DNA of 64,000 bases. It comes from Steroidobacteraceae bacterium. Lineage in GTDB: Bacteria > Pseudomonadota > Gammaproteobacteria > Steroidobacterales > Steroidobacteraceae. The DNA is taken from positions 612,366-676,365 of the forward strand of contig JASGLD010000001.1 in the NCBI GenBank assembly GCA_049840395.1, written 5' to 3'. The notes beneath the pieces are model-generated. The model saw only the letters and a list, made by a program, of their open reading frames with translations, was not told the DNA's origin and made no database searches. This document shows positions 1,654 through 60,389 of the stretch, piece by piece; position 1 is the stretch's first letter, and each line of letters begins with the position of its first letter. A program made the position numbers and the translations under genes.

Positions 1654-5083
<3,430 letters not shown>

Positions 5084-5173: not shown

Positions 5174-6898
5174 ATGCAGGTAATCTTGCGATTGGCTTGG
5201 TCATGCGTGTGCATGCTGATAGTGCTGTTTGCACTGTGGCTGGCGACGCCGCATATGACGGCGCAGCAGCAGTACGTCGATGGTCGTCGTGAAGCCGTAC
5301 AGTTGCCCTGGCATTTGGCCGTACCAGCCATCGGCAATCGACTCATCGTCGATCTGCAGGTGAATCGATTGACGCCTGGTCTCTGGCAGATCATCCCCGA
5401 CGACGAACTCAAAGCATTGCGCATCAACGGTCAAGAGGTGCCGCTATCCGCAGTGGGTGGTGGCCTGACCGATTGGAACAAGGGCTTTCAATTTGATTTG
5501 TCGCCCTGGCTAAAGCCCGGCAGCAATCAACTTGAATTTTCGCTGGACAATCATGGCGGCACCGGCGGGCTGATGCTGCGGCCGCATTTAAGTTTCTGGC
5601 ATTGGCTCATTATCGGCGGCAGTTTTATTCCGTGGCTATGGCTGTTGTCGCGCTGGTTAGGCTTGGGCCGTGCGCAGTTTCTGCTGTTGGCGTTGGCTTT
5701 GATTCCGCTGTGCATTTATTGGTCGGCCACACCCTGGGATGTGCGCACTCATGATGTGGTTGCCGATGGCGGGCATCTCGACTACATCCGCTATATCGCC
5801 GTCGAGCATGCACTGCCGCAGCCGAATGCCGGTTGGACCTTCTATCACCCACCTTTGTATTACTTGAGCGGTGCGGCGGTATATGCGGCAGCGATGCAGC
5901 TCAGCCTGTCCGTGTCACAGGTGTTGCAGGCTTATTCGCTGTTTCTCTGGCTGACATTTTTATGTGCCGGCGCAGCTTGTCTGCAATTGTTATTGCGCGG
6001 TAAGTCTCTGGCTTTGTTGGCCGCGACCTTGGCGCTGGCGACCTGGCCCAGCGGCATCATTCACGGCATCCGCATCGGTAACGACTTGGCGTTGTATGCG
6101 ATGGCTGGATTGGCAACCTGGCATCTGCTGCGTTGGTGGCGAACCAATCATCGCGCCAATTTGCTGTGGATGGCCGGTTTCACCGCTTTAGCCTTCCTCT
6201 GTAAGAGCAACGCCATCGTATTGTTGGCGGCGGTCGTGCTGCTGTTTGCTGCACGTACTGAACATCGCTGCCTGCGCTTGCGTCCGGTGCGAGCCAGCGA
6301 TGGCGTGTGGATGCTGGTCATCATGTTGATGGGCGTGGCACTTGGCTTGTCCACCAAGCTGTACTATCACTGGCAGGGCGATCTACCTAACTGGCTGGTG
6401 GGCAATGCCAATCAGTTAAACGACCGCTTGCGCGTGCCCGTGACGCTACAGAACTTGTTATTGCCGGATGTGAAAACTTTTTTGACGCATCCCTGGCTGG
6501 ATGCATGGGATGACGGCACAGGGCGTGGGCGTTATTGGAATTATCTGTTGCGTTCGTCGCTGTCGGGTGAATTCAAGTTCGCCGGTATTGGCGCGGAACG
6601 TATTGCTTATCTCTGGGGCGGGTTGCTGCTGGCATTGCTGGTGTTGCCCTTGCGCTCGCTGCGAGGTCTCACGATAGGCCATTGCTGGCGCAATCTTCCG
6701 TTATTGATCCTGGCTGGAGTATGGCTGGCCAGCTTGATGGCTTTGCGCATCAAGGTGCCTTATTCGTGCAGTAACGATTTCCGTTATGTTTTGCCGGTGC
6801 TAATACCGTTTCTGGTGTGGTGCGCGCGGTCCAGGTCATCGCAGGCGTTGTTGCTGGTGATGAGTTGCAGTTCGATATGGTTTTTTATGTCGATGTAG
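5174..6898 (+). CDS. Polytopic inner-membrane protein (possible GT-C/ArnT-like glycosyltransferase); function uncertain
   Basis: 574 aa with an N-terminal signal/TM, a ~130-aa periplasmic-like segment and more than 10 hydrophobic helices rich in W/L. No diagnostic motif recognised. Confidence 0.6.
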   Translation: MQVILRLAWSCVCMLIVLFALWLATPHMTAQQQYVDGRREAVQLPWHLAVPAIGNRLIVDLQVNRLTPGLWQIIPDDELKALRINGQEVPLSAVGGGLTDWNKGFQFDLSPWLKPGSNQLEFSLDNHGGTGGLMLRPHLSFWHWLIIGGSFIPWLWLLSRWLGLGRAQFLLLALALIPLCIYWSATPWDVRTHDVVADGGHLDYIRYIAVEHALPQPNAGWTFYHPPLYYLSGAAVYAAAMQLSLSVSQVLQAYSLFLWLTFLCAGAACLQLLLRGKSLALLAATLALATWPSGIIHGIRIGNDLALYAMAGLATWHLLRWWRTNHRANLLWMAGFTALAFLCKSNAIVLLAAVVLLFAARTEHRCLRLRPVRASDGVWMLVIMLMGVALGLSTKLYYHWQGDLPNWLVGNANQLNDRLRVPVTLQNLLLPDVKTFLTHPWLDAWDDGTGRGRYWNYLLRSSLSGEFKFAGIGAERIAYLWGGLLLALLVLPLRSLRGLTIGHCWRNLPLLILAGVWLASLMALRIKVPYSCSNDFRYVLPVLIPFLVWCARSRSSQALLLVMSCSSIWFFMSM

Positions 6899-21610: not shown

Positions 21611-21643
21611 AGGTCATTCCTGATCTTTTCATTTCGCGTTCTT

Positions 21644-30372: not shown

Positions 30373-30680
30373 AACGATCACAAACCACGGCACCAATTCC
30401 TTGATGGCGAATCATCCACGACTTGGATGATTTCGTATTCGTCATCCTCCTCGCCATCCAACAAATATTTTCACAAGAGTATTGACTCCAATAAAAACAG
30501 GCATAACATGCGCGCCCCTATGTTTACTCAAATACACAAACCAACTCTGTCGCAGCAGCTTTATAGCTGCGTGCACATCGCGAATGAAGCCATTCGCGGT
30601 GACGGGTTGGTGTTGTCTTATGAATTGCCAGCGCAATTCAACATGGATGCAAACAAGCTAAGTTAGCTTTCTACGCAAGT

Positions 30681-38400: not shown

Positions 38401-38910
38401 CGGAGCATTGGTGCCCGCAATGATTACGCTGTTCGATGTGATCCATGCGCCACGTATTGCGTTAAAGCTTTTTTGAAAAGAGAACGCATCGGGCGTGGTA
38501 TCTGCCTCCAGGGTGGTGGCAGTAAAGGTTGCGGATATGCCGCCCACAGTCAGCACGGCACTGCGCGCCGTAGAAAACTGATTCGAAGAAGTCAGGCGAA
38601 CTGTGATCTTCTGATTGTTGGTAACAGAGCCTGCGGCAGCGGTAAAAGCGCCGGCATCAATCGAATACTCTCCGCCTGTTATCGAAACCGGTGTGCTCGC
38701 ATCAATGCCGGAGATGACAGTCTCATTGGAGGTGACGGTGCTCGATAAGGCCGTTCCAGACTGGGCACTGAAGGAAAAAGCATTGGGTGTTGTATCTGGT
38801 GGGGCTGGGGTTTGACTCTGGCTGCTGCTCTCTCCACCAGCGCCGCCACCACAGCCAAACAGAAGAGCGAATAGTCCGAGCGCAATCAAACGAAAAATCA
38901 GCTTCGCCAT
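35473..38910 (-). CDS. Giant modular surface lipoprotein/adhesin, N-terminal 1145 aa
   Basis: Lipobox (LLFGCGGG). Two ~95-aa Ig-like domains, then ~330-aa modules with TSP3-type motifs (DSDGDGVPNTQDAFPLDPAASxDTDxDGYPD). The modules are nearly identical at nucleotide level. Confidence 0.8.
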   Translation of the reverse strand: MAKLIFRLIALGLFALLFGCGGGAGGESSSQSQTPAPPDTTPNAFSFSAQSGTALSSTVTSNETVISGIDASTPVSITGGEYSIDAGAFTAAAGSVTNNQKITVRLTSSNQFSTARSAVLTVGGISATFTATTLEADTTPDAFSFQKSFNAIRGAWITSNSVIIAGTNAPAPISIENGEYSINGGSFTSAAGTIGTAQTLIVRVKAAATYAKTTQVRVTVGSVAGTFEVMSELPNYVPDKVVYDDQDIVYLLNNANNLIFRWSLAQERYLDAYTTGFNGLPPITMSYSSNHKRLYLGYDNGAIRYIDVTSTNTAEVAFASTALSVRGLTAVGKFMLAQDGSGAWATHYVFNSTGTVTDSKDWNYYSREYAWDAANSRVYFFRDAQSPNDLHYEVIDQVTGKITSAGETPYHGSYNILPPIRVSVNGQYVLLGSGDIYNQSGLTWSDSLGSQVTDARWFANGSLVTLTTASNKTTLRRLGPTLTNLELLTYNGQALRVMGSDTKMAVLTINNSTVQFYIYIPNNDSDGDGVPNTQDAFPLDPAASLDTDGDGYPDSWNPGKTQSDSTTGLTLDAYPKDSACYLPQHGDGVNCNYGATMPNYIPDQVINDGDTVYLLSTANKRVYRWSLATASYLNPYVVGINQGLSTLAPIKMAYSSDHKRLYLGYSTGAIQYIDVTSTSVAEIPFASTAMSIRGLTAVGKYVLAQDSSGAWATHYIFDRNAVVTDQKDWNYYSREYAWDATTSRVYFFRDDTVPNDLHYEVIDQTTGKITSVGETPYHGAYSIQPPIRVSANSQYVLLGSGDIYNQTGLTWSGSLGSQVTDARWFANGSLVALTTASNQTTLRRLGSTLTNLEQLTYNGQALRVVGSDTKMAVLTINNGTVQFYIYVPNDDSDGDGVPNTQDAFPLDPAASVDTDHDGYPDAWNTGKSQSDSTTGLSLDAYPQDSACYLPQHGNGTTCNYAATLPNYVPDQVVNNGDTIYLLSAANKRVYRWSIATGAYLNPYVVGINQGFSTLAPTKMAYSSDHKRLYLGYSTGAIQYIDVLSNSPVEIPFTNTAMAVTGLVAAGKFLLAQDGSSYAANHYVYNSSKVLTDQTGSYYSSEHAWDAVNSRVYFFRDGISPNDLLYEVIDQVTGKITSAGETPYHG

Positions 38911-39061
38911 ACCTGCGGTTCCCAGCTTTTGCTTGCTTAATTATGTCCAAAAAATCCCAGCAAATTCCCGCGAAGCTTAGCACACAGATAATAAAGGTAA
39001 GCACTGCGACCGCCGGGTGTGGTGGCCGCAGAGCCGTGTGCGAAGTGTCATGCCAAGGTCA

Positions 39062-39619: not shown

Positions 39620-39707
39620 CGTCATCCCCGCGCAGGCGGGGATCCAGCAATAAAGCGTCGCAACGCGACACATCTACTACTGGATGCCCGCCTGCGCGGG
39701 CATGACG
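39620..39707. repeat. ~90-bp TIR palindromic element, copy 2 (compensatory base changes relative to copy 1)
   Basis: CGTCATCCCCGCGCAGGCGGGGATCCAG...CTGGATGCCCGCCTGCGCGGGCATGACG. Confidence 0.7.
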
Positions 39708-42323: not shown

Positions 42324-42334
42324 TGATTGCAAAT

Positions 42335-42362
42335 ACCCCCGGCCCGGCGATGTTGCTTATCG
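42335..42362. repeat. Truncated right end of the ~150-bp cassette-array repeat (AAATACCCCCGGCCCGGCGATGTT), marking the left edge of the accessory island
   Basis: Same terminal motif as repeat copies A, B and D. It sits 12 bp after the methyltransferase stop. Confidence 0.55.
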
Positions 42363-42376
42363 AAGATATTGCTCCG

Positions 42377-44659
42377 TTAAAAAGGAATGTCGTCATCAAA
42401 CTCGTCGGTTCTGTCTTCGATGACAGGATTCTGGTCAATGATGGGTCTAAATTCCTGCAGGGCCAACGGGGGATGCGCTGCGCGAAACGTGGTTCGAAAC
42501 TCGCTTTGATCATTCAGTCGAATGAGAACGGGATTTTCGCAACTTGAAGCTTTTCCAAAGAAGACTGCATGTCGTTCTGGCAGTGAAGATAATGTGCTTG
42601 CGTAATCGCGCCCAATGTAATTAGCCAAGAATTCCTTTCCTGTTTCATCGAATGTCCGCATGGCAAACACTGTGTTGCATTGATTAAGGATTGTCTTTGT
42701 AACGTTAGCGGTACGCTGAGTTATTAATAAACACCCAAGCCCATACTTTCTCCCTTGTAGAATGGCACGAGCTGTTCCGCTGGTTGCATTCTTGTCACCT
42801 TCATTTACTACGGAGTTCCACTCCGGGATCAACGAGTGAGCCTCTTCATATACAAGGCAAACGCGGGCTGTCGGCGACATTTTGGTGGAAAGAACCGAAA
42901 GAGTTGATTCTGAAATTATTTGCGTAATTTCAACGGGCGTCACTGAGAATAGTCCGGCACGACTTCGCCACTCGTTACCTACTTTGTACTGGCTTGGTTC
43001 GCGTTGCTGTTTTGTTGCGACGAAGCTTGACGGGTTATATATCTTGAGCGGACGATTATTGTTATCGCTTAAAAAGTCAGAAATATCTGCGTAAATGGCA
43101 TCGCGCAGATTGGGTAATGATCCGCCATGCTCCGGATTGTTATCTAGCTCTTCACGATCTTTCTCAGAGGCTGCTTGTAGCTTCGCTAAGCAATGCTCTT
43201 CATAAGTGGAATCGTAAAAGTCATTCAATTCTTGTTCGTATTGATTCGTAAGGTCAAGACAAATGACCTTTATGCCTTCCGCCATGATTCGTTCAATCAA
43301 TTCGATGGCTAGCATTGATTTTCCAATGCCAAGAATTCCTAGAATAGCGGTGTTGTGTGTAACTAGATCGCTGATGCTCTTAATCTTTGCATGGAAGTTA
43401 GTCTCAGGAAAATGGCCAACCGAATTTATATTAACTTGGTATTCGGATCGCTTTTCAAGATATACGGGAGTGTTCAGTGTAGGTAACCAATTGCATTGCG
43501 AGAACTTAGAAAAGGCGTCATTCCAAACGCCGATTTGCTGCGCTTGTCCTCGCAAATATCCATAAGTATTCTTTTGTTGAACAATTTCTTCTTTTGTTAG
43601 GCCACCTACTATCTGATAGAGCACCTTATTTTGCCCAACCTTAGTAGAGACTAGACGTCCCTCCTCAAGCTCTGAGTTTTGGACTATCTCAAAGTATAGT
43701 CGCTCTATTGTCGTGTCTGGGGCGACCAAGCCAACTATGCTGGTTTGAGAATCTCTGGATAAGTTCTCAATACGGCAGATTTTATCGAGTATGTCGTCCT
43801 TAAGTTTATATACAGTCTCGTCTATAGGTGAGGCATCGATAGCTGAGTTACTTACTGCTGATAGATTTTTTAGTTCCACCGCACGAATAAGGATGCCTTC
43901 TGCCCGACCTACAAAATCCAAGGCGGCGACAAGCTTTTTTGGGCCGTGCTTATCACTGATATAAAGTAGGTCATATTTATTAATATCTCCTTCATGCTGT
44001 TGGCGAAGCAGCACAATTCCTGGATCTTGGAAAGCAACTACTTCGCCAATAGCGCCGTCGAAAACGTTGTTCGTGAATGTGCGCTTTATTTTATTAAATC
44101 CGCCAACTGTAAAATTTCCAAGCGACCACCAAACAGTTGTTCCGGTAACCATGCCTATAACGACTGCCTCTATCCAAGACTCTGCGTGAAAGCAAAAAAT
44201 TGAAAAAAGAACCAAGGGGGTATAGATGTACTCAGGCTGGCCGATTAGATCGAGTCCTATTCGGATTTTATTCGAAAGTTCTTTAGCCCACTCTGCATGC
44301 GAAGAATTTAGAGAAATGGTGAGGATGCCAAAGAACCCGACGACGAGGCTCGGTGCCATTGCTAGAACAAATCCCCATTGTTGATTAGCCGACCAGATGG
44401 GCCATTTGTTGACAAGTAATAGTGATATTGCTGCCGGTATCGCGTACGAAATTGCATCTACTGGTTTTACGTAGAATGGGGTTGCTAGTTTTGAACCTAT
44501 TAGCACTGAGAGTAGAGCTGAATATGCCCAAAAGCCCTTGTCACCCAAAGGCGGATATGGTGTGCCAAACAGGTAGTTGCATGCTATGAACACAACAATC
44601 AAGTCGATGCATAGTGATAAAAGGCGCTGTGGCTGGGTCAGTGCGAAATCTTTTTTCAT
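42377..44659 (-). CDS. HerA/FtsK-superfamily (DUF87-like) P-loop ATPase with an N-terminal polytopic membrane domain; low GC, likely horizontally acquired
   Basis: 760 aa. ~6 TM helices, a central beta-rich region, Walker A GILGIGKS, Walker B LVYEEAH and a HerA-type C-terminal motif LLITQRTANVTKTILNQCNTVF. GC is far below neighbours. Confidence 0.85.
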   Translation of the reverse strand: MKKDFALTQPQRLLSLCIDLIVVFIACNYLFGTPYPPLGDKGFWAYSALLSVLIGSKLATPFYVKPVDAISYAIPAAISLLLVNKWPIWSANQQWGFVLAMAPSLVVGFFGILTISLNSSHAEWAKELSNKIRIGLDLIGQPEYIYTPLVLFSIFCFHAESWIEAVVIGMVTGTTVWWSLGNFTVGGFNKIKRTFTNNVFDGAIGEVVAFQDPGIVLLRQQHEGDINKYDLLYISDKHGPKKLVAALDFVGRAEGILIRAVELKNLSAVSNSAIDASPIDETVYKLKDDILDKICRIENLSRDSQTSIVGLVAPDTTIERLYFEIVQNSELEEGRLVSTKVGQNKVLYQIVGGLTKEEIVQQKNTYGYLRGQAQQIGVWNDAFSKFSQCNWLPTLNTPVYLEKRSEYQVNINSVGHFPETNFHAKIKSISDLVTHNTAILGILGIGKSMLAIELIERIMAEGIKVICLDLTNQYEQELNDFYDSTYEEHCLAKLQAASEKDREELDNNPEHGGSLPNLRDAIYADISDFLSDNNNRPLKIYNPSSFVATKQQREPSQYKVGNEWRSRAGLFSVTPVEITQIISESTLSVLSTKMSPTARVCLVYEEAHSLIPEWNSVVNEGDKNATSGTARAILQGRKYGLGCLLITQRTANVTKTILNQCNTVFAMRTFDETGKEFLANYIGRDYASTLSSLPERHAVFFGKASSCENPVLIRLNDQSEFRTTFRAAHPPLALQEFRPIIDQNPVIEDRTDEFDDDIPF

Positions 44660-44699
44660 ATGGTTTATCCGTAACCTCTCAGATACTTAATAGCCCGCT

Positions 44700-44880
44700 C
44701 CGCGGATGTCGCCGGGTCGGGGGATTGGGAGTATTTATCGAGCACACTGCGAGAGAGTGTAAAGCTACACTTTAACTATTTTTAAATCACCCGATCCACA
44801 GACTCGTCATTACGTTCTCGCGCTCCGCGCACCGCGGGCTCCGAGGAGCCCGCTGCACGACTCAGGGGATCGGGTCAATC
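44700..44880. repeat. attC-like/cassette-boundary palindromic region
   Basis: CCGCGGATGTCGCCGGGTCGGGGG and GGGCTCCGAGGAGCCC palindromes, related to the repeat ends elsewhere in the array. Confidence 0.4.
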
Positions 44881-44881
44881 A

Positions 44882-45166
44882 TCAACCCGCCTCAACCAGC
44901 GGCCGGATATAAACCGAATCCAAACGATTCACCGACTCTCGAACGAGGGTCATGGCGATCTCTACGACATCCGGAAAATAGCCCTGTTGTTTTGGGTCGC
45001 TGTCATCGGCGTATTCAAGCGCCACATACAGACATTGAAGTAAAGATTGCGCTTTTGAAAGCTGGGTGCGCTCGGCTTCAATCGCTTCGTGTAACGCTTG
45101 GTGACGGGAATTGTGAATAGAGTTTTTGGAAAGACGCTGTTTCGAAGTAGAATTTCGCTTAGCCAT
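44882..45166 (-). CDS. Cassette-like small hypothetical protein (94 aa)
   Basis: ORF bounded by repeats. No recognisable domain. Confidence 0.45.
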   Translation of the reverse strand: MAKRNSTSKQRLSKNSIHNSRHQALHEAIEAERTQLSKAQSLLQCLYVALEYADDSDPKQQGYFPDVVEIAMTLVRESVNRLDSVYIRPLVEAG

Positions 45167-45530
45167 GGTGACCTCGTTGATAGGTGACTTTGGTTAGGCG
45201 TTCGTCTCGGTGACAGCCGGGGCGGACGCCGCTTTTTGTGGGCTGTTCGTGCCGCGTGAATTCCCAAAATGCCTGGAGCAATCCGTGTCGGCGGCATGAG
45301 CTAATCCCCACACAATCATGCCAGATAACTGTATGGATAACCAGCTAAAAAGCTTAAGTGAATTCAATTCATCGGCGCGCAACTTCAGTTAAAACTTTTC
45401 TACTTCTTTATCTGCAAACTGAAAATCAACATCACGCTCATCGGGTTGTGATGTTTGGGAGCGAATGACTACATAAATACCTACGGATCGACGGCCCGGT
45501 GATGCTGACCGCCGGGGTACACTCCATTCA

Positions 45531-46067
45531 CTACGTGCAACGACTAAACGCTAGTCTTAATGCCGTTCCAATTTCTCCATGTGTACTAATTGCAGGAATC
45601 TTCAAATGCTGCTCGTCTGCGATTCCTCTATTTGAATATTCTTCAAGCCCCTCATAATGACTTGGCACAATCATGATTATTCCATCAGCCTGGGAGATAC
45701 TGCAGCTTTTCATGTCCTTAAAAAGTGCACGACGTGAGCGATAACCATACTTCTTAACTTGTTGCTCAATGCATCTATTGTAGTGGTTACTTGATTCATC
45801 ACGTATCTCCTCCGCCTGCTTGAGACTAAAGAAACGAGTTTTGTCTAGGGCGGAAACAATTGCTTGGCCCAGTGCATCATCAAGGCTACTCACCGATATA
45901 TCGACCGGCGCATACAATGGATCAGGCTGCCCCATGCGATAGGCAGAGTATGTCCACACTGATATGAATTTACTACTTGACGTCGCTATCGCTTGTTTTT
46001 CTCTAATTGGATCGAGAACAGTCGGACTAAATAGCGACGTCACTTTTTTCCTAATTTTCTCTAGCAT
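45531..46067 (-). CDS. Cassette-like hypothetical protein (178 aa), low GC
   Basis: A palindromic GC-rich repeat (ACGGCCCGG...CCGCCGGGGT) lies immediately downstream of the stop. Confidence 0.6.
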   Translation of the reverse strand: MLEKIRKKVTSLFSPTVLDPIREKQAIATSSSKFISVWTYSAYRMGQPDPLYAPVDISVSSLDDALGQAIVSALDKTRFFSLKQAEEIRDESSNHYNRCIEQQVKKYGYRSRRALFKDMKSCSISQADGIIMIVPSHYEGLEEYSNRGIADEQHLKIPAISTHGEIGTALRLAFSRCT

Positions 46068-46218
46068 TGAACGATCCTATTAGTCAGGCCTCCAAGAGTT
46101 ATTATTAATATACACCGGCACACCCCGTACTGGGTTGCTCTTCAAACCACCGTCATAATTAACTGCCCGCTGAATTTGCTGAATCTGCACAGCAGGAGTT
46201 TCCGCACACGACAACGGT

Positions 46219-46362
46219 GCTGGGCCGTCGGATCGGGGATTCAAGAAGAATAATCGAGAACTGACTTCGTCTACTTCACAAGATGCTTTCATCTCGCGGC
46301 ACTTAAGCAACTGCAGTTGATATATATCAAATACCCCCGATCCCCCGGCCAGGCGATGTTCT
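46219..46362. repeat. ~150-bp cassette-array repeat, copy A (attC-like)
   Basis: Shares ~80% identity with copies at 46951-47098, 51041-51198 and 52803-52957. Ends CCGGCCAGGCGATGTT. Spurious ORF 46080..46487 is its translation. Confidence 0.65.
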
Positions 46363-46532
46363 GTTCTCCCCGAAGGGAGCGAGACGATTGGGTAAGGCGA
46401 GAGGCATAGAACCGGAAGTACAAAGCAGTGCGGCGGCAGCGCTTGATCATCGAGCGCACATTGACCGACAATGTTCTGAGCGACCATTAAAATCGCAGCT
46501 TAGTCGCAAGCAGCACTCAGGGAGATAAAGAG

Positions 46533-46946
46533 ATGCCTACGCTCGAGCCCGTCGAATTAAAAGCATTCATCCCGGCAAAGGACTACCAACTTTCAATCCA
46601 ATTTTACCAAGACCTCGGTTTTACCTTGTGCTGGGGAGGCGAAGGCGAGCTTGCCTACTTCCATTACGGCGACCATGGCAATCACGGCAAAGTCGGTTTC
46701 CTGCTGCAACGTTTCTACGTCAAAGAATTCGCAGAAAACCTCATGATGCATCTCATCGTCAAAGACCTCGATGCATGGTGGGCGAACGTGCAAGATAAAA
46801 ATTTGGCGGAGAAATACGGCGTGAGAACGGAGCCGCCTGAGCTTCGGCCATGGGATATGACGGACTGTGTTATTTGCGATCCGTCGGGGGTTTTATGGCG
46901 GATCGCACAGGAAGATCAAGGAGAGGATTGGCGCGAACCGGCTTAG
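46533..46946 (+). CDS. VOC family (glyoxalase/bleomycin-resistance-like) protein; the only plus-strand cassette gene
   Basis: 137 aa with a beta-alpha-beta-beta-beta VOC-like pattern. A common integron cassette function. Confidence 0.65.
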   Translation: MPTLEPVELKAFIPAKDYQLSIQFYQDLGFTLCWGGEGELAYFHYGDHGNHGKVGFLLQRFYVKEFAENLMMHLIVKDLDAWWANVQDKNLAEKYGVRTEPPELRPWDMTDCVICDPSGVLWRIAQEDQGEDWREPA

Positions 46947-46950
46947 CAGT

Positions 46951-47098
46951 CGACATCGCCGGGCCGGGGGAGGGGACTCAAGAAGAGTAATCGAGAACTG
47001 ACTTCGCTTACTTCACAAGATGCTTTCGTCTCGCGGCACTTAAGCAACTGCAGTTGATATATATAAAATACCCCGATCCTCCGGCCCGGCGATGTTCA
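46951..47098. repeat. ~150-bp cassette-array repeat, copy B (attC-like)
   Basis: Terminal inverted repeats CATCGCCGGGCCGG ... CCGGCCCGGCGATG. It lies directly below the stop of 47109..47573. Confidence 0.65.
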
Positions 47099-47108
47099 CG
47101 TAGCATGT

Positions 47109-47573
47109 TCATAGGAGCGTAAGCACTCCATCCTCTATCGAGAACGGAGCGTCATTGACCGCAGTGATCTTTCCGTCGAAAGACAAACAAAGTTTGTGTT
47201 CGGGGTCCCAGCGGGGATCGACATGAATGCTGGCAAAGAGGTCTGAGTGAACGTTAAGAATGGCTGCTCCGACTTCGGTCAGCACCTGGGACCTAGCTAG
47301 GCCAGAGGGAACCTTCCAAAATCGAAGCCAATCGTTGGTCTCGGCATGCTTGTAGTGCCCATATATCAAATCCCAAATTTGCGAACCGTGAGTCTCGGCG
47401 AATGCCGCAAGCCTAGCCGCTAGATTGACCATCGCTTCAGTCGGCAAGGTCTCAATGTCGCAGTAAAGCTCAACGGGTAAAATACCAATCTCCGTCTCGA
47501 CGGAGTGTTCCCAAAGCCAGGTATCAAAGAGAGCTGGCCCGCGAGGTTGCTTGTGAAATTCAGAGAGCCGCAT
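47109..47573 (-). CDS. Cassette-like hypothetical protein (154 aa)
   Basis: ORF immediately upstream (in gene orientation) of repeat copy B. Confidence 0.6.
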   Translation of the reverse strand: MRLSEFHKQPRGPALFDTWLWEHSVETEIGILPVELYCDIETLPTEAMVNLAARLAAFAETHGSQIWDLIYGHYKHAETNDWLRFWKVPSGLARSQVLTEVGAAILNVHSDLFASIHVDPRWDPEHKLCLSFDGKITAVNDAPFSIEDGVLTLL

Positions 47574-47693
47574 AGTTTGAGTGAGCCACAGAATGAGACG
47601 CCCAACGCTGCTGATAAGCCGACGCGAAAGAGCGTAGCGATTGAGCGGTCGAACGACCGGAGGGAGTGAACTTGATTGGCTGGTTAGGTGCCT

Positions 47694-47927
47694 TCATGAC
47701 TTGGAGAGCGCAATAAACCATTTTTCAGGGTGCTTCGGGCATAACAGTTGTCCAGCCTCATCTTTCTTTCCTTCGCGGACAAGTTGAACAACTTTGTGAG
47801 CTTCCAGATGCCTTGGAATCTCAGGAAGTGATTCATTACAACAAGCAGCCAGCACGACATCGCGCAGGCGATACCAATCAGTTGACGATAAATCCGTATC
47901 GTTGAAACCACTGCTCATAGCGGGCAC
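47694..47927 (-). CDS. Possible small cassette ORF (77 aa)
   Basis: Only ORF in the 47.6-48.1 kb gap. Weak support. Confidence 0.3.
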   Translation of the reverse strand: MPAMSSGFNDTDLSSTDWYRLRDVVLAACCNESLPEIPRHLEAHKVVQLVREGKKDEAGQLLCPKHPEKWFIALSKS

Positions 47928-48095
47928 CTAACGAATTAACTAACGGGCGCGCCGTCTTTCGGCGCGTCTGCGTTAAGTGATTTGTTAGTGCTCTTAGCTT
48001 TCATCAGTTTGAACCTCAATTTCAAGCTCGTCGTTTCTTCCGAGCTTCAATACGTAAGCGAACTTGCCAGAACCCAACAGAGGACAACGGTGCCG

Positions 48096-48160
48096 GGCCG
48101 TCGGATCGTAGGTGTCCTTGCGCGGACCGACGGCCCGGCACCGCTCACCCTGTGTCGGAG
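48096..48160. repeat. GC-rich palindrome (GTGCCGGGCCGTCGG...CCGACGGCCCGGCAC), attC-like
   Basis: A 15-nt inverted repeat directly downstream of the 48184..48615 stop. Related to the left end of repeat copy A. Confidence 0.5.
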
Positions 48161-48183
48161 CGATTTGCGGGCTGCAGCCATCA

Positions 48184-48615
48184 CTACTCAATGTAGAGAT
48201 GAGCAAGTAAATGACGCTTTTCCTTATCTGCAAGTACGTCGATGGATCCCCCGTTAGGTGCATCCTTGGGCTTACCTAGATAGTGCCACGCCACTTCGAA
48301 ATTTGGCCCCTTGTTTTCAGACATGGGGTGGTCATGGGCATGCTTGTAGTAGGGAGTTTCCTCCAATGTATATGGCTCACTCACCAGCAATTTTGGGAAA
48401 TCAGAAGGATCTATCTCGAACGCACAAGTTACCAATGTGTCTGTAAAGCCCAGTGACGCACAGTCAGCAGATGAGACCGACCATGGCACAGTATTCAGGT
48501 CAAAAAGATATCCGACTCCCATTCGCTCTTGCCACCAAGAAAATGTGAGGCCCAGTGCGAACAGTGTAAGTGTGGCGCCTAGCCAAAGCTTCCATCTCTT
48601 AAGCTGCTGTAGCAT
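48184..48615 (-). CDS. Cassette-like membrane-anchored hypothetical protein (143 aa)
   Basis: N-terminal TM (LWLGATLTLFALGLTFSWW). Confidence 0.6.
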   Translation of the reverse strand: MLQQLKRWKLWLGATLTLFALGLTFSWWQERMGVGYLFDLNTVPWSVSSADCASLGFTDTLVTCAFEIDPSDFPKLLVSEPYTLEETPYYKHAHDHPMSENKGPNFEVAWHYLGKPKDAPNGGSIDVLADKEKRHLLAHLYIE

Positions 48616-48627
48616 TTGTCTCTAGTT

Positions 48628-48695
48628 GCCTAACGCCGTGTATTAGACGACAAGTCGCGAGTCTGCGCCGGGCCGTCTCGAAGCGCTGGTTAGGT
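48628..48695. repeat. Canonical integron attC-like site (68 bp): GCCTAAC ... GTTAGGT
   Basis: Inverse core RYYYAAC (GCCTAAC) and core GTTRRRY (GTTAGGT) as inverted repeats. The core overlaps the TAA stop of 48690..49019 (ACCTAAC on the coding strand). Confidence 0.6.
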
Positions 48696-49019
48696 TGCTT
48701 TTGGTTGCGCATTAAAGAAGTGTACGAGATCAGCAGCGGTCTTGACCTTGCCATATAGCGGGTTCGCTTCCATCTTATCCATCGAGCGAGCTGTCCGTTG
48801 CGCAATCTCGGAGGCAATATCCATATCGAGATCTTCGCTGTCTATTGGCAAATCCTGGCCAAAGACATCCGATGCTCGGATTGGGATCTGATACTTCGAT
48901 CCTAAGTGCTCTTGTAGTTGCTCATAAACCGCGCGCACGACCCAGGTATCAACCGAGCGCTCATCGAATGAGCGAGCGAACTCACAAATGGACTCACCTT
49001 TTCTAGAAGCTGCAAGCAC
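48690..49019 (-). CDS. Cassette-like hypothetical protein (109 aa), possibly an ACP-like fold
   Basis: The acidic IDSEDLDMDI segment vaguely resembles a phosphopantetheine attachment region. Low confidence on function. Confidence 0.55.
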   Translation of the reverse strand: MLAASRKGESICEFARSFDERSVDTWVVRAVYEQLQEHLGSKYQIPIRASDVFGQDLPIDSEDLDMDIASEIAQRTARSMDKMEANPLYGKVKTAADLVHFFNAQPKAT

Positions 49020-49059
49020 GAACCCGCGACCCGGCGATGCTCATCCAAAACGCATTGCT

Positions 49060-49560
49060 CTACTCGCCGTACTCAAATGAGTGCAGAGCATGAAGCGCGC
49101 TAACCACGTGCGGCCCCCAATGAAGTCGAAACATTTCACGCCAACTGTACACAGCGGCCTCGACATGCCCAGCATCAAACAACCAGAGGCCTGACGAGAT
49201 GTCCGCGTAGATGTCTTGGAAGTCGTCGAACAGATCGCCACAACCTGGCTCCGTATCTGTATCGGGCAAGGCGGGTTCGCACAGAACCCAATAATACTGA
49301 AAAGGCAAAGCTGATAAATTCTGTGCTACCACTTGGCGCTGAACGTCAGTTGTACGAGGAGCCTCAGGAGACCGTTTGAATTCGACTTCCGGTAGGTAGA
49401 GCGCTGAGTTGTAAACAGAAGATAGATGACGAAGCGCTTCGACCTTGAATTGCTTCGGAGCTGCGCCATCGTGGTCCGTTTTGCACCACTTTACGAATTG
49501 TCGCGCATGCTTCTCAAACTGAGCTATTGCATCTGATTGAGTCATGATGCGTTCGAACAA
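49060..49560 (-). CDS. Cassette-like hypothetical protein (166 aa)
   Basis: Separated from the previous ORF by only 40 bp, which contains a repeat-end remnant (ACCCGGCGATG). Possibly a two-gene cassette. Confidence 0.6.
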   Translation of the reverse strand: MFERIMTQSDAIAQFEKHARQFVKWCKTDHDGAAPKQFKVEALRHLSSVYNSALYLPEVEFKRSPEAPRTTDVQRQVVAQNLSALPFQYYWVLCEPALPDTDTEPGCGDLFDDFQDIYADISSGLWLFDAGHVEAAVYSWREMFRLHWGPHVVSALHALHSFEYGE

Positions 49561-49617
49561 GTAACGAACGGACGTGGGTGTCCGGGCATGTTTATTACTG
49601 AGGACACTCGACGACTC

Positions 49618-50202
49618 CTAGAACAGGAATTCCTGTACGGCTAATGATGCGACAATTCGTCCGTTTACAGTCGCTGGCTCAAATCGCCATTGCTTCATGC
49701 TTTCGAGCGCCGCCGCAGTAAGCGCGGGCGAGGAAGTCTCGAGCACGACCTGATCACTTGCAACGCCGCTAGTCGTAATGATGTAGCCGATTACAACCTT
49801 ACCTGACTTAGGCATACCGTCAGCATCCAATTGCCGACCCGGCAAACTGCCCGCAAGAACTTTAGCTCTATTCATAATCGAATCGTTAAGAACGTCGGCA
49901 AAGATGTACTTGCACCCATAGGCTTTCTTAAGCGCTTGGTCCATTTGACTCGTTTCCGCCGTGGCACGATTGAATATCGTGCGCGCCAGCATCGACTCGG
50001 TGGATTCCTTTTTCGCACCGGACTTGCTGGGCGACTCACAGGCAGCATTAGCCGAAATACAGCAGGATAGTGCGGCAATTCCAGCAAAGACTCGTATCAT
50101 GATTTTCATGCAAATAGGCCTAACGTTCCCAGTAAGCTGAACAGTGTCAGGTCGTCGATCCGTATGTATGTATTTTAATGGCGAGGGTGAAGTACACCAC
50201 AT
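49618..50202 (-). CDS. Secreted TonB C-terminal-domain-like protein; probable true start at MKIMIRVFAGIAALSCC (~50109)
   Basis: Signal peptide. The C-terminal region resembles TonB_C (VVLETSSPALTAAALESMKQWRFEPATVNGRIV). Confidence 0.6.
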   Translation of the reverse strand: MWCTSPSPLKYIHTDRRPDTVQLTGNVRPICMKIMIRVFAGIAALSCCISANAACESPSKSGAKKESTESMLARTIFNRATAETSQMDQALKKAYGCKYIFADVLNDSIMNRAKVLAGSLPGRQLDADGMPKSGKVVIGYIITTSGVASDQVVLETSSPALTAAALESMKQWRFEPATVNGRIVASLAVQEFLF

Positions 50203-50279
50203 AAATACCTACGGATCGACGGCCCGGCATCGTTTCCCGCGGCATCATTTCCCGAATCGCCTCCAATTGCTTGTTAAGC
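50118..50279. repeat. attC-like site (162 bp): GCCTAAC ... GTTAAGC
   Basis: RYYYAAC and GTTRRRY cores at the two ends. GTTAAGC overlaps the TAA stop of 50274..51005. Internal ACGGATCGACGGCCCGG matches the 45470 repeat. Confidence 0.55.
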
Positions 50280-51005
50280 ATCCGCACTTTTTGGTCTCTT
50301 CCAAATGAGAAAATTGGCGTTGCTCGTGCTCCCCATCGCTTTGATTACGGCTTCGTCGTTCAATACATTGAAACGAGATTGAAGCTGCTCAAGGAGTTTG
50401 AATTTCACTGCCGCATCGTGCGGGATCAAGCAGCCTTTCTGGTTGCCATCCATGATTGCAAAGAACACATCCTCTGCATATGGGCCGTCATCTGTAGTAA
50501 TGATTCTGATCTCATCTACGTCATCCCAACGAATTCGCTCGTTTATCGAGCCTACCGTCCTCACAACACCCACATCATCGATTTCGATCGTTTCTGTTTC
50601 AGTCCCGGGTTCCGCCCCGAATCCGAACCTGGCGCGTCGCAGATAGGCAGCAGCTGGAAAGCCGAATGCGACAAGCGCAAGGATGGCATTGATCACAGAT
50701 GGGTTTGATCGGGATTCGGAAACCGCTACGCTATCAACGATTTCGGTGAACAGATACCACGCGGTGACAACAAGTACCGCGGACGCAAGGAAGCTGCCTA
50801 TTACCCTCTGAATACGACCGTGGACGAAACAGACGGCCGCGATACCAAGGCAAAAGGTGCCAAACAAGTAGTGACCGATCGGCCTATCCGCGCTCGGCGC
50901 GATGAGAATCATCACCATGCCGAACAAACCCGCGAAGAACGAGAGAATTAATCGAAGTGCAAGACCATTGCCGCCTCGTGTCGGCTGTGTTTCTTCGGGG
51001 ATCAT
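50274..51005 (-). CDS. Cassette-like membrane protein (243 aa; 4 TM plus a cytoplasmic domain)
   Basis: Hydrophobic N-terminal half and a soluble acidic C-terminal half. Confidence 0.6.
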   Translation of the reverse strand: MIPEETQPTRGGNGLALRLILSFFAGLFGMVMILIAPSADRPIGHYLFGTFCLGIAAVCFVHGRIQRVIGSFLASAVLVVTAWYLFTEIVDSVAVSESRSNPSVINAILALVAFGFPAAAYLRRARFGFGAEPGTETETIEIDDVGVVRTVGSINERIRWDDVDEIRIITTDDGPYAEDVFFAIMDGNQKGCLIPHDAAVKFKLLEQLQSRFNVLNDEAVIKAMGSTSNANFLIWKRPKSADA

Positions 51006-51040
51006 TGTGATATTGCTGGTAGATTGATTAGTGCGGAATC

Positions 51041-51198
51041 AGCATCGCCGGGCCGGAGGATCGGAGGATTCAAAAAGAACAATTGAGAACTGGCTTCGCC
51101 TGCTTCACAAGATGCTTTCGTCTCGCGGTACTTAAGAAACTGCAGTTGATATGTATCAATAGCCACGATTCACGGCCCGCTGCAACTGCTTGTTAGCC
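51041..51198. repeat. ~150-bp cassette-array repeat, copy C (attC-like), ending with GTTAGCC
   Basis: Aligned with copies A, B and D. GTTAGCC lies 19 bp before the GNAT stop. Confidence 0.6.
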
Positions 51199-51216
51199 GC
51201 TGGCATGTCGGTGATG

Positions 51217-51699
51217 CTAGCTCTCTGATGCAAAATGATCGAGCTCCGGCCCTGCGAGTCTGAAATACAGCTTGCCCGGATTCGTTTGGGCTCCGAGTTG
51301 ACGATAGAAGCTCAATGCTTCCAGGTTAGTTTCGTCGACGGTCCAGTCGAAGCGGCTACACGATTTGGAAACAGCATAGCGAGCTACGAAGTGCATCAAG
51401 GCCTTGCCAATACCTCCGCCGCGACAATCAGAGGCCACAAACAGCTCCTTCATGAAGAGCTGTCCGCGCTCCTTGGGTGCGGGATAAAGAATAGAGATTG
51501 AGGCCAAGCCGACTGCGCGTACACCGTCGAGCGCGATGACTAGGTGCACACCTGAGTGCTCACCCAGTATGTTCTTGATAAGGTTCTGTCTCACCTCGTG
51601 ACGTTCAGACGCATTCGGGCCGTTGTAATGAGCGCTCATGTCGAGCATGAGGTCTGTTACGGTTTCCAAGTATTCATGCGTGTAGAACTGAATGTGCAT
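51217..51699 (-). CDS. GNAT family N-acetyltransferase
   Basis: Acetyl-CoA binding motif (RGGGIGKALMHFV). Confidence 0.8.
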   Translation of the reverse strand: MHIQFYTHEYLETVTDLMLDMSAHYNGPNASERHEVRQNLIKNILGEHSGVHLVIALDGVRAVGLASISILYPAPKERGQLFMKELFVASDCRGGGIGKALMHFVARYAVSKSCSRFDWTVDETNLEALSFYRQLGAQTNPGKLYFRLAGPELDHFASES

Positions 51700-51934
51700 G
51701 ATTGGCGGCTAACTAGAAGTAGAGGCCGGTGATACGGGCCCTAAATGTCCCTTTACAAAGGTACTTATATCAGTGTTGTGCACCTTGGTTCTCCAGAATT
51801 CCTTGTCGAACAATCGGCTGCTGCTTTGTAGCTGAGCGTATCGAAAAAAGCAAAAGGGACTTGTGAGTGGTCGCTCCTGGCCGGTATCTGCACTGCAATG
51901 GAGTCGGGCCATCGGATCATGGGTGTTTGGCGAT

Positions 51935-52010
51935 TGATGTATCAAGCCCAGTCAACATCTTGCCGCAGCGCATAGCTGCTATATTCCAAATGCACCACCC
52001 GGCGACGTTC
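51935..52010. other. Remnant of the 3' end of a phyH-like gene, duplicated from 54812-54885
   Basis: ~75 bp are ~90% identical to the 3' end plus ~20 bp downstream of the PhyH gene. The reverse complement encodes ...RVVHLEYSSYALRQDVDWA*. Confidence 0.6.
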
Positions 52011-52027
52011 ATGCGAGGAGATTGACC

Positions 52028-52774
52028 TCACCGCGCCAGTAAGCCCCGCAGGACCATGTAGCAGCCGAGCAAGAGCATGGCGAAGAGAAACCACCTTTTA
52101 AACGCCACGGGATCGATTCGTCCACGAGCGCGCTGCCCGGCAAACATGCCGATCAGTGCTGGGATCACTGCCAGTAGCGAGGCGAGCAAAGAAGTGGAGG
52201 AGTAGCTGCTGCGCACGCTCAGGCCAATGGCGAGCGCGATGGTGGCTACGGTGGCGAACAACCCAAAGGCTTGAACGAGTTCGTCCTTGCCCAAATCAAG
52301 AGCGCTCAGGTAAGGCACGGCCGGTACGAGGAATACACCTGTTGCCCCGCTAATGACGCCGGTGACGGCGCCGACGACGGGCGAAAGCACTGACTCTGAC
52401 TGCGGTGGCACAGTGAACTTGGGCAGGAATAGCGCCAGCAGCGCGTAGAGAGCGAGTACCGCTCCCAGTGCGACCGATGGCCAGCGGGAGGAGCCCGATG
52501 TCAGGAACTGAATGCCGAAAGCCGTTCCCACGCACACCAGCACCACCATGCTCGCGAATCGTTTTGTCACACTGACCGTCGCAGCCCCCACGGCGAACTG
52601 CCAGATGTTGGTAACCAGCGATGGCACCACGAGTAATGCAGCGGCTTGAACAGGCGCCATGACAACGCCGAGCGCGCCCATCGCAACCGTTGGCAGCCCC
52701 ATGCCAACTACACCCTTCACCCAGCCGGCAACGAAAAAGACAAGCGCCACAAAGGCAGCGGATTCGAGTGGCAC
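52028..52774 (-). CDS. TauE/SafE family sulfite exporter-like membrane protein
   Basis: 248 aa with 7-8 TM helices and Gly-rich repeats typical of TauE/SafE (DUF81). Confidence 0.75.
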   Translation of the reverse strand: MPLESAAFVALVFFVAGWVKGVVGMGLPTVAMGALGVVMAPVQAAALLVVPSLVTNIWQFAVGAATVSVTKRFASMVVLVCVGTAFGIQFLTSGSSRWPSVALGAVLALYALLALFLPKFTVPPQSESVLSPVVGAVTGVISGATGVFLVPAVPYLSALDLGKDELVQAFGLFATVATIALAIGLSVRSSYSSTSLLASLLAVIPALIGMFAGQRARGRIDPVAFKRWFLFAMLLLGCYMVLRGLLAR

Positions 52775-52802
52775 GTGTTGTAACTCCTAACGGGTGATGC
52801 AG

Positions 52803-52957
52803 TCGACATCGCCGGGCTGAGGGATCGGGGGACTCAAGAAGAATAATCGAGAATGGGGTTCGCCTGCTTTACTAGAAACTCTCGTCTCGCGGCACTTAAG
52901 CAACTGCAGTTGATATGTATCAATAGCCACGACCCCGCGCCCCCGGCGATGTTGGAC
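52803..52957. repeat. ~150-bp cassette-array repeat, copy D (attC-like), ending with the core GTTGGAC
   Basis: GTCGACATCGCCGGGCTG ... CCCCCGGCGATGTTGGAC. Spurious ORF 52787..53074 is its translation. Confidence 0.6.
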
Positions 52958-53120
52958 AAAATAAGTGTTCCCTTTAAGCACATTTGCAGGCCTTGAGCGT
53001 ATCCAATGCAAGATGGTTATGGGGGTCATATGGTCACTTGCTGTGGTCTCTCTGTTGTACCTAATTGTACCCATCGGGCGGCTTATCGGTTTTCTTTTCC
53101 GACAAGACGCCTGCTCGTGA

Positions 53121-54729: not shown

Positions 54730-54820
54730 TGACAGGGTGAGTGGTGTTAATCAGTCTTAACTAGGTTGCTGTCTTTAGGATCAAGCAGAGTGCGAGTGAT
54801 GGTGATCAATGATTAATGCA

Positions 54821-55495
54821 TCAAGCCCAGTCAACATTTGGCGGCAGCGCATAGCTGCTGTATTCCAAATGCACCACCCGACGATGCGCCTTGCTTTGTG
54901 ACTTGCTCGATGAGTGCAGCACGTGCGGGCGCATGATCATGGCGTCTCCGGCAGCGACTACGCAGGCAACGGGCTTGGAATTTTTTGCTAGTTGTTCGAT
55001 TTCCCTTTGAGCCAGTATTCCCTGGCGATGCGATCCTGGAATGATGTTGAGGCAGCCGCTTTTTTCGTCTGCATCGTCGATATGCAGTCTGATGGTCACC
55101 ATTTTATCGAGTACGGCGCGTGGCGGTTGTACATGATGCACGCCATCCTTGAATGACCAGGGTCCCCAACCCGACATTTCGCATCTTTGATTCAGTGTGA
55201 CGGTTCTATCTTGATGCCAGGCCACAAACCAGTTTGCTTCCGGTGTCTTGTCGAAAAATAAAGCGCGTACCAGACGAGGCGGTGACTGAAGTAGTTCGTT
55301 GGCAATATTCAGCATGTCTGGAGAACTGGCCAGTTGGGCAACGCTGCTGAACCTCTTTTCAAGATTGCGGATGCCATGCCGGCGAAGTTGCTCGCAGCCT
55401 AGACTGATCTCTGACTTGACGGCTTCAATGCTGTCGCGCGAGAGAATGCCTTTGCGAATCTCCGCGCCATCGGTATGAAAGTTGAGCGAGGTCAA
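54821..55495 (-). CDS. Phytanoyl-CoA dioxygenase (PhyH) family protein
   Basis: 224 aa; I did not pick out the PhyH-type 2-His-1-carboxylate iron motif, so the call rests on overall similarity. The C-terminus ...HLEYSSYALPPNVDWA is duplicated as a remnant at 51935-52010. Confidence 0.65.
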   Translation of the reverse strand: MTSLNFHTDGAEIRKGILSRDSIEAVKSEISLGCEQLRRHGIRNLEKRFSSVAQLASSPDMLNIANELLQSPPRLVRALFFDKTPEANWFVAWHQDRTVTLNQRCEMSGWGPWSFKDGVHHVQPPRAVLDKMVTIRLHIDDADEKSGCLNIIPGSHRQGILAQREIEQLAKNSKPVACVVAAGDAMIMRPHVLHSSSKSQSKAHRRVVHLEYSSYALPPNVDWA

Positions 55496-57666: not shown

Positions 57667-57703
57667 CGCTCTACTCTTGAAGTTAACTGACGCGATCTTC
57701 TAT

Positions 57704-57904
57704 TCCCTCCCCCGTTCCACGGGGGAGGGCAGGGTGGGGGCGTCTGACGACTGCGCCCAGCATCAAATCAAGTAATTAAATCTTTGCCGCCTCTTGATAG
57801 ATGGTTACGGGGTCATGATGAGATAAATGCTGTTTGCTCAGGTTGAGATTTGAGCTTTTTGTTTTGCCCCCACCCTAACCCTCCCCCGTCGAACGGGGGA
57901 GGGG
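57704..57904. repeat. MITE-like composite REP element (GGGTGGGGGC family), copy 2
   Basis: TIRs CCCTCCCCCGTTCCACGGGGGAGGGCAGGGTGGGGGC ... GCCCCCACCCTAACCCTCCCCCGTCGAACGGGGGAGGG. The interior is shared with copy 3. Confidence 0.7.
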
Positions 57905-57928
57905 ATGTTGGAGTTGGATTTGCTTGTT

Positions 57929-57990
57929 TTGTAGGTCGGGTTTTAACCCGACTCTTACGTTTTAAGAGTCGGGTTAAAACCCGACCTACA
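57929..57990. repeat. REP hairpin (TGTAGGTCGGG family), ~28-bp perfect stem
   Basis: TGTAGGTCGGGTTTTAACCCGACTCTTACGTTTTAAGAGTCGGGTTAAAACCCGACCTACA. Confidence 0.65.
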
Positions 57991-58011
57991 AAGAGCAGCT
58001 GAACGCAGCTC

Positions 58012-60086: not shown

Positions 60087-60163
60087 TTAAGTCCCAGCAA
60101 ATCGTTTTACTCCTGAGGTTCATGCACGCTTGCAAGATTGATCACTGCTTAGTGGAATGATTC

Positions 60164-60352
60164 CCTCCCCCGTTCGACGGGGGAGGGCCAGGGTGGGGGC
60201 ATCTGACTATTATGCCCGGCATTGAATACCCAACCCTACGCTGCGTTTGGGTCGGTGGCTATGAAATTGGGATGAGATGAATAGAGTTTGCTCAGGTTGA
60301 GTTTGAGCTTTTTTGCCCCCACCCTAACCCTCCCCCGTCGAACGGGGGAGGG
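60164..60352. repeat. MITE-like composite REP element (GGGTGGGGGC family), copy 3
   Basis: Same TIRs and shared ~50-bp interior (TTTGCTCAGGTTGAG.TTTGAGCTTTTT) as copy 2, in direct orientation 2.3 kb away. Confidence 0.7.
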
Positions 60353-60389
60353 AATAGAAGAGAGGGGTGAGGGGCCGTGGTGCTAAGGC

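Follow-up and report, generated by a model that had tools for sequence, protein, structure and literature searches.

Do two pairs of short inverted heptamers, each carrying the stop codon of a small open reading frame, mark the attC sites of an integron, or do they belong to the generic palindromes of a genomic island? The question arises in a 64-kb stretch of DNA, analysed here as a whole and referred to as the window, from the 998,785-bp contig of an uncultured Steroidobacteraceae MAG, in which a run of small genes is interspersed with palindromic repeats. [quoted passage not shown] Since R'' (RYYTAAC) directly adjoins the gene, its TAA is often used as the stop codon. The evidence gathered below indicates that the two sites are very probably attC sites of an integrase-less, decaying cassette array (CALIN), a known and fairly common element.

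Core heptamers and embedded stop codons

The heptamers lie where the preliminary description had placed them. On the forward strand, GCCTAAC is found at 48628-48634 and GTTAGGT at 48689-48695, and the TAA (48692-48690) of ORF 48690..49019 falls within ACCTAAC of the reverse strand, which reads ACCTAAC...GTTAGGC over 68 bp. These 68 bp had been given as the distance between the inverted repeats; they are the length of the entire site, and 54 nt separate the heptamers. The second site, at 50118-50279, has the same geometry as claimed (GCCTAAC 50118-50124, GTTAAGC 50273-50279, with the TAA at 50276-50274 of ORF 50274..51005 within GCTTAAC), and from 50279 to 50118 reads GCTTAAC...GTTAGGC over 162 bp, slightly long compared to the criterion of ~50-150 bp for attC sites. 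Both sites lie directly 3' of a co-oriented ORF with its stop within R'', and the next ORF follows soon after R': 12 nt on (ATG at 48615) for 48628-48695 and 8 nt on (ATG at 50110) for 50118-50279, the distance being 8-27 nt across the sites of the array.

The embedded stop codon had been called a hallmark of cassettes and the strongest sequence-level evidence for an integron-derived island. As a cassette feature it is typical, since 13 of the 29 reference attC sites with an adjacent ORF carry the TAA of that ORF in R''. Taken alone, however, it is near chance level: of 200 open frames with 100 codons or more, four end in RYYTAAC, two of these outside the island. Strict RYYYAAC-N35-160-GTTRRRY pairs occur nine times in the window against 4.4±2.3 times in dinucleotide shuffles (20 of 300 shuffles reach nine), and four core pairs fall within 2.7 kb of the island, a cluster that 8 of 300 shuffles also attain. 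Real as the arrangement of heptamers and stops is, its statistical weight by itself is small, so that independent tests were needed. The rank of strongest evidence passes instead to the covariance model and to homologous cassettes in true integrons, which together uphold the attC identity and raise the geometry above chance; core heptamers alone are no evidence, and the structural model and the cassette homology are needed together.

Structural models of attC sites

A first covariance model (R1) was seeded with 23 attC sites from unrelated loci, fetched via protein homology and none of them from the window. Its seed architecture comprises a 7-bp R box, spacers of 5 and 6 nt, and an L box of 3 bp, bulge, 6 bp, bulge and 2 bp, with the bulges at positions 16 and 23, matching G16/T23 of attCaadA7. 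In the alignment 90% of the cells are paired, and the covariation was beaten by none of 500 shuffles and by no slid control. With filters off, the best R1 match in the 64 kb is 48628-48695 on the reverse strand, full-length and at 22.0 bits (E ~0.003, a rough value like all E-values of these models, which are our own rather than those of IntegronFinder, are seeded with sites of canonical features and were briefly calibrated). On 1.3 Mb of other loci, all 44 R1 matches (E <=1) lie in cassette-gene orientation, and attC sites outside the training set score 18-52 bits there. A second-round model (R2), built from these 44 matches, found four sites in the window, all on the reverse strand and within 2.7 kb, with E-values again to be read as rough:

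47600-47689, reverse strand: best-preserved attC, 90 nt; 31.7 bits, E 7e-5
47926-47990, reverse strand: attC, 65 nt; 21.1 bits, E 0.016
48628-48695, reverse strand: probable attC relic, 68 nt, of the truncated ORF109 cassette; 21.0 bits, E 0.016
50118-50279, reverse strand: decayed attC, 162 nt, of the ORF243 cassette; 13.2 bits, E 0.88 (whole window) or 0.19 (island)

The sole comparable match elsewhere is a 35-nt palindrome at 14234-14268, outside the island between a tRNA-synthetase gene and scpA, which scores 19-20 bits; single matches near 20 bits are therefore no proof. The palindrome itself was rejected as an attC, being too short and having no L box. An Rfam scan of the window returned no matching family for the sites, its only match being tRNA-Thr. 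Most inter-ORF elements of the island, namely the family-A repeats described below and their relatives, went undetected by R2.

Cassette genes with relatives in integrons

Three cassette genes were tested, and all three have relatives of 81-88% identity in textbook cassette arrays; for two of them (ORF109 and GNAT) the relatives lie in integrons with IntI.

48690-49019, reverse strand: 5'-truncated cassette gene ORF109 (QM808_02975), 109 aa, with relatives of 175-177 aa
50274-51005, reverse strand: cassette gene ORF243 (QM808_02990), a membrane protein of unknown function, with relatives 85% identical in the loci L084-L086
51217-51714, reverse strand: GNAT acetyltransferase cassette, with the core G|TTAGCC at 51714-51708 and the ORF at 51699-51217

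ORF109 is without ~66 N-terminal residues, which make up the membrane segment of its relatives, and the truncation point abuts an attC remnant at 49019-49045. A full-length relative of 88% identity in a textbook array (L004) ends in "...GCA ACC TAA CCAGCG", so that R'' and spacer, ACCTAAC-CAGCG, are identical there and in 48628-48695. In Paucibacter (L045), an ORF109 relative is cassette 3 of a complete integron whose IntI scores 518 bits on NF011946. The family is scattered over Gamma-, Beta- and Alphaproteobacteria, Planctomycetota and Campylobacterota, and about 15 of 80 copies end in xxxTAAC. Not every relative resides in an array, since the first context examined (L001/L002) consists of small co-oriented genes with no clear attC sites.

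The relatives of ORF243 came from a protein search, a metagenome scan having yielded no close relative. Their upstream flank reads ...CCGCTGAAC-CGGGAC-GTTAGGC-21 nt-ATG and their downstream flank GCC TAA C-AAGCA-GTCGCAGCGGACCG...CGGCCGCTGAAC-TGCGGC-GTTATGC, the canonical attC sites of these genes beginning with GCCTAAC-AAGCA-GTCGCAGCGG. Site 50118-50279 reads GCTTAAC-AAGCA-ATTGGAGGCG ... CAGCTTAC-TGGGAAC-GTTAGGC, its 5' arm shows homology to canonical attC sites in L084 and in a further locus (L090), and by this comparison it is evidently a mutated version of the L084-L086 attC frame. In L084, an IS110-family transposase gene (2845-3792) was seen beside a disrupted attC upstream of the ORF243 homologue, an arrangement reminiscent of attC-targeting IS1111-type elements.

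The GNAT cassette shares 83% nucleotide identity over 545 nt with the first cassette of a further integron (L088), where it lies next to IntI. The two sequences are homologous precisely from the G of GTTAGCC onwards (window 51714 = L088 9985), upstream of which L088 has attI sequence and the window a different sequence. Cassette junctions made by IntI are classically recognised by a homology break at G|TT. The IntI of L088 scores 411 bits on TIGR02249, and its array holds 16 canonical attC sites of 34-66 bits. The IntI frame (L088 8287-9906) runs ~200 codons past the usual end and was not called as a gene in the original annotation, which may reflect an unusual C-terminal extension or a sequence error.

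L088 and L084 are metagenomic contigs with a sedentary chromosomal type of integron, whose attC sites read RYYTAAC-AAGCA-GTTGCAGCGGAC...GCCGCTGAAC-TGCGGC-GTTAGGC. The window shares with them the 5' arm R''-AAGCA-GTTGCAGCGG, found after GNAT and, mutated, after ORF243, as well as the GNAT cassette with its boundary at G|TTAGCC and the relatives of ORF243. L088 has IntI and well-folded, homogeneous attC sites; in the window IntI is missing, and the interiors of the attC sites bear no relation to those in L088 and L084. Each of the three cassettes whose relatives are known loses its homology to them inside the attC 5' arm, before R' is reached, the shared part being R'' and spacer, in some cases with L''; as far as the alignments go, this would fit array-specific attC interiors.

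A cassette array without an integrase

The sites and cassettes described above form part of a larger array:

42324-52959, reverse strand: whole cassette array (CALIN), ~10.6 kb, with ~14 small ORF units, nearly all on the reverse strand

Its G+C content is 0.42-0.52 compared to 0.55-0.60 in the flanks, the low-G+C stretch running on to ~55.8 kb. The ORFs encode a HerA-like ATPase, a CdiI-like protein, DUF5063, TonB_C, GNAT and TauE proteins and several proteins without a family, and one glyoxalase gene lies on the forward strand. The left, distal edge lies at 42324, at the stop of a chromosomal methyltransferase gene.

The last cassette (42377-44659, reverse strand) encodes a 760-aa protein whose N-terminal ~400 aa are without a family and whose C-terminal half matches anti-phage HerA ATPase models (PADLOC PDLC04105, 78.6 bits, E 9e-23). 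It is possibly a defence gene carried in a cassette array.

Given the cassettes on the reverse strand, intI would be expected to the right of the array. A tblastn search of the window with IntI1 and, to the same negative effect, with the L045 IntI gave nothing better than E 0.6, and Pfam found no integrase and no recombinase among all ORFs between 42 and 64 kb; there is no IntI within 11 kb on the expected side and no intI or intI relic in the window. One tblastn match, at 38841-39047 (E 0.62), was discarded as an integrase, Pfam finding nothing there. The window does not hold a complete integron, for which intI (encoding a tyrosine recombinase with the IntI-specific insertion) within ~4 kb of the array, attI and Pc would be expected.

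By definition, a CALIN has two or more attC sites in one orientation, spaced by less than 4 kb, with no integrase nearby (Cury et al., 2016, PMC4889954). The array has four reverse-strand attC matches between 47600 and 50279 with no intI or intI pseudogene nearby and, there being no intI or intI relic in the window, is to be classed as a CALIN; as in CALINs, the cassettes are of small size, for the most part lack a known function and carry no resistance genes. It differs from the CALINs of that study in that only four of ~14 inter-ORF elements match the canonical attC model, the remaining ones being truncated or of a private 145-nt repeat family, and in that one cassette gene is 5'-truncated. 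The earlier proposal that the island is integron-derived rather than a set of generic REPs is thus well founded, with attC-model matches, homologous cassettes in true integrons and a repeat motif confined to the island all pointing the same way.

We suggest that the array was assembled from cassettes of promoterless small genes, each inserted in the past by IntI via its attC, and that it is inactive today. It would no longer be maintained, as the attC interiors and genes carry deletions and mutations. A comparable course is known from Xanthomonas, where integrase activity is progressively lost and CALINs are found at various loci (bioRxiv 10.1101/2025.06.18.660453). Both cases concern chromosomal arrays in a gammaproteobacterial lineage; unlike the Xanthomonas integrons, the array in the window does not lie next to ilvD, and the host family is different. 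The 613-aa ORF at 14304, considered as ilvD, is ScpA. We found no literature on integrons of Steroidobacter or Nevskiales or on these attC sequence strings, and exact-protein look-ups of the flanking methyltransferase and of ORF109 returned no record; a documented cassette array is hereby added to the little-studied soil and sediment family Steroidobacteraceae.

Decay of individual attC sites

In attCaadA7, G16 and T23 are extrahelical, although some attC sites need no extrahelical bases (Nivina et al., 2016, PMC5027507). Judged against attCaadA7 and VCR, with their R box, unpaired spacers of 5 and 6 nt and L-box bulges at 16 and 23 (PMC5027507), the sites of the window are preserved to different degrees.

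The description of the flagged sites as canonical attC cores is accurate for the R cores but does not extend to the rest of 48628-48695. Here R'' (ACCTAAC, 48695-48689, with the TAA) and R' (GTTAGGC, 48634-48628) form seven pairs, one of them G·T, and the spacers CAGCG after R'' and CACGGC before R' are unpaired. Bulges occur at both canonical positions, of which the first is kept as in attCaadA7 and VCR, while on the bottom strand the second would be C in place of T. Degradation has reached the L box, in which eight of 11 pairs are standard and three non-standard and the GTT/AAC base has disappeared. Shuffled sequences fold at least as well as the bottom strand of this site (z +0.56, and +1.2 in a separate run), which gives no stable hairpin, in contrast to 25 reference attC sites with a mean z of -3.9 (range -7.5 to -1.2). 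In 50118-50279, L'' and L' are mutated and the L box is not formed; the fold z of -2.6 is owed to an inner hairpin at 50140-50234 and not to the R and L boxes. A 15-nt tandem duplication lies inside this site (50224-50238 / 50239-50253, CCGGCATCGTTTCCC / GCGGCATCATTTCCC).

The other two R2 sites are in a better state. Site 47600-47689 (R'' ACCTAAC, spacer CAGCC, L'' AAT-C-AAGTTC-A-CT, R' GTTGGGC) has both bulges, at positions 16 and 23 of the top strand with G and T on the bottom strand, which equal G16/T23 of attCaadA7, and a fold z of -1.0. Site 47926-47990 (R'' CACTAAC, L box ACT-T-AAC/GTTAGT, R' GTTAGGT) folds well, with z -6.8.

Three further elements of the array appear as remnants:

49019-49045, reverse strand: attC 5'-arm remnant (GAGCATCGCCGGGTCG...), 15 nt past the DUF5063 stop and fused to the truncated ORF109
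45468-45510, reverse strand: attC 5'-arm remnant, 21 nt past the stop of the CdiI-like ORF and 97% identical over 32 nt to 50196-50227
51708-51930, reverse strand: attC-like spacer, long and decayed, that separates the GNAT cassette from a PhyH 3' fragment (51932-52005) and ends in ...GGCCTCTAC-TTCTA-GTTAGCC

The fusion of 49019-49045 to the truncated ORF109 points to a deletion scar. Decay is evident from this truncated gene, from attC sites truncated at 49019, 45468 and 42324, and from the fold of 48628-48695. Between the TonB_C and DUF5063 ORFs (49561-49617) no attC-like element is detectable, so that these genes either form a two-gene cassette or have wholly lost the attC between them. The PhyH fragment, right after the TauE ORF, is a 74-nt duplicate with 91% identity to 54811-54884, the 3' end of a PhyH-family gene (54821..55495), and resembles what a second PhyH cassette or a rearrangement would leave behind.

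Might the array nevertheless be a working cassette reservoir, its flagged sites and family-A repeats recombined in trans by an IntI from another part of the genome? CALINs are open to mobilisation in trans, and for half of them the replicon also codes for IntI (PMC4889954); together with the two canonical bulges and 31.7 bits of 47600-47689, the strong fold of 47926-47990 and the existence of attC sites that need no extrahelical bases, this lends the idea some plausibility. Against it stand the shuffle-like fold and three broken L-box pairs of 48628-48695, the mutated L'' and L' of 50118-50279, the truncation of several attC sites and one gene, the GTC or GCT that replaces GTT at three of the four family-A 3' ends, and the lack of IntI within 11 kb on the expected side. 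On balance we consider a working reservoir unlikely and hold to a decaying CALIN, in which 48628-48695 and 50118-50279 are probably relics, and 47600-47689 and 47926-47990 look, from their boxes and predicted folds, still usable in trans. Such a distribution suggests an order of erosion after integrase loss, where R cores with the stop in the core last longest, and L boxes and hairpin stability go first.

A private repeat family at attC positions

Much of the array is punctuated by a ~145-nt repeat, family A, of which four copies, 72-82% identical, occupy attC positions without canonical R or L boxes. The family is private to the island, and its arms, AACATCGCCGGGCCGG / CCGGCCCGGCGATGT, are common to the ~145-nt copies and to shorter hairpins.

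46208-46360, reverse strand: family-A repeat at an attC position
46951-47096, reverse strand: family-A repeat, 13 nt past the stop of ORF 47109..47573; fold z -6.3
51037-51199, reverse strand: chimeric attC after GNAT, with a canonical 5' arm GGCTAAC-AAGCA-GTTGCAGCGGGCCG (51199-51172) followed by a family-A centre and 3' arm, without canonical L' or R'
52800-52959, reverse strand: family-A repeat with GTCCAAC at its 5' end; GTTAGGA at 52791-52785 lies just upstream of the TauE ORF
42324-42358, reverse strand: 5' arm of a family-A repeat without the remainder, cut where the chromosomal methyltransferase gene has its stop, at the distal (left) array edge
48069-48160, reverse strand: hairpin element of the family-A arm family, with a 17-bp perfect stem (48088-48143), ending in GTTGGGT (48075-48069)

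Fragments of the family are found at 42324-42358, 45468-45510, 48069-48160, 49019-49045 and 50140-50234. On the reverse strand the 5' arms of the repeats begin 13-21 nt past the stops of the HerA-like, CdiI-like, ORF154 and DUF5063 genes, which is the expected start of an attC. Their 3' ends have GTC or GCT in place of GTT in three of four cases, and the "spacers" pair, with no consistent bulges. The canonical 5' arm of the chimeric element, which R2 did not detect, is homologous to L088 for 27 nt and is then followed by family-A sequence. Relatives of family A were found neither in 185,579 species genomes, JGI metagenomes and plasmids nor in 1.3 Mb of fetched loci; a search of plasmids for L088-type attC sites likewise gave no match, and a scan of family A as a promoter for forward-strand genes gave no support. 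We regard family A, provisionally, as attC-derived, either lineage-specific or eroded.

A bolder proposal, put forward tentatively and with the odds rather against it, is that family A and its shorter hairpin relatives represent a non-canonical attC class of this lineage, with arms nnnnAAC-ATCGCC-GGGCCGG ... CCGGCCC-GGCGAT-GTY. If so, the "spacer" directly after the R box would be fully paired, a canonical L box and extrahelical bases would be missing, and the array would exchange the interior of each incoming attC site but retain R''; the three cassettes that share only R'' and spacer, or these and L'', with their relatives are consistent with such a process. Within this locus, new insight into the making or homogenisation of attC sites in an array could come only from the family-A repeats.

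Less probable still, and in our judgement improbable, is that family A is no attC variant but a separate MITE-like small mobile element that targets attC sites and overwrites their canonical interiors. Four copies of 72-82% identity with terminal inverted repeats, one of them fused to a canonical attC 5' arm, are what such an element might leave behind, and attC-targeting insertion elements do exist, as the IS110-family transposase gene beside an attC in L084 recalls. Yet target-site duplications are lacking, none of the copies is followed by a canonical attC 3' half, no copy lies outside the array in the window, the genomes, metagenomes, plasmids and loci searched hold no relatives, and the 5' arms start at the distance past the ORF stops seen for attC sites.

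As to REPs, the arm motif CGGCCCGGCGATG (up to one mismatch) occurs eight times, always within 42340-52819 and nowhere in the rest of the window (~50 kb); the island repeats are therefore not genome-wide REPs, and the chromosome-wide dispersal of copies expected of REP/BIME elements is not seen for this motif. That the heptamers are chance matches in a generic genomic island, its palindromes REP-like or terminators with nothing integron-related about them, would accord with the near-chance rates of heptamer pairs and embedded stops, with several REP-like palindrome families in the genome and with the ~19 bits of the short palindrome 14234-14268, but is very improbable in view of a top R1 match that is exactly the flagged site in the right orientation, four co-oriented R2 matches in 2.7 kb, three cassettes with relatives in bona fide arrays or integrons, one with its homology boundary exactly at G|TT, and an island motif missing from the remaining 50 kb of the window.

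Palindromes outside the array

Three genome-wide REP-like palindrome families occur outside the island, with sequences different from the island motif. They are represented by TTGTAGGTCGGGTTTTAACCCGAC... at 21639-21674, 30314-30374 and 57928-57992, by CGTCATCCCCGCGCAGGCGGGGATCCAGC... at 28090-28178 and 39620-39707, and by ATTCCCTCCCCCGTTCGACGGGGGAGGG...GGGTGGGGGCA at 9950-10120, 57702-57906 and 60160-60355.

A 187-nt nested palindrome lies in the core genome at 6911-7097, 13 nt past ORF 5174..6898, and folds strongly (z -11.3). Its ends resemble attC boxes, GCCTAAC-AAATT-GAGCG ... CGCTC-AATTT-GTTAGGC, with 19 nt perfectly complementary. The element is longer than usual attC sites and is undetected by the attC models; it could be a solo attC-like site or a MITE.
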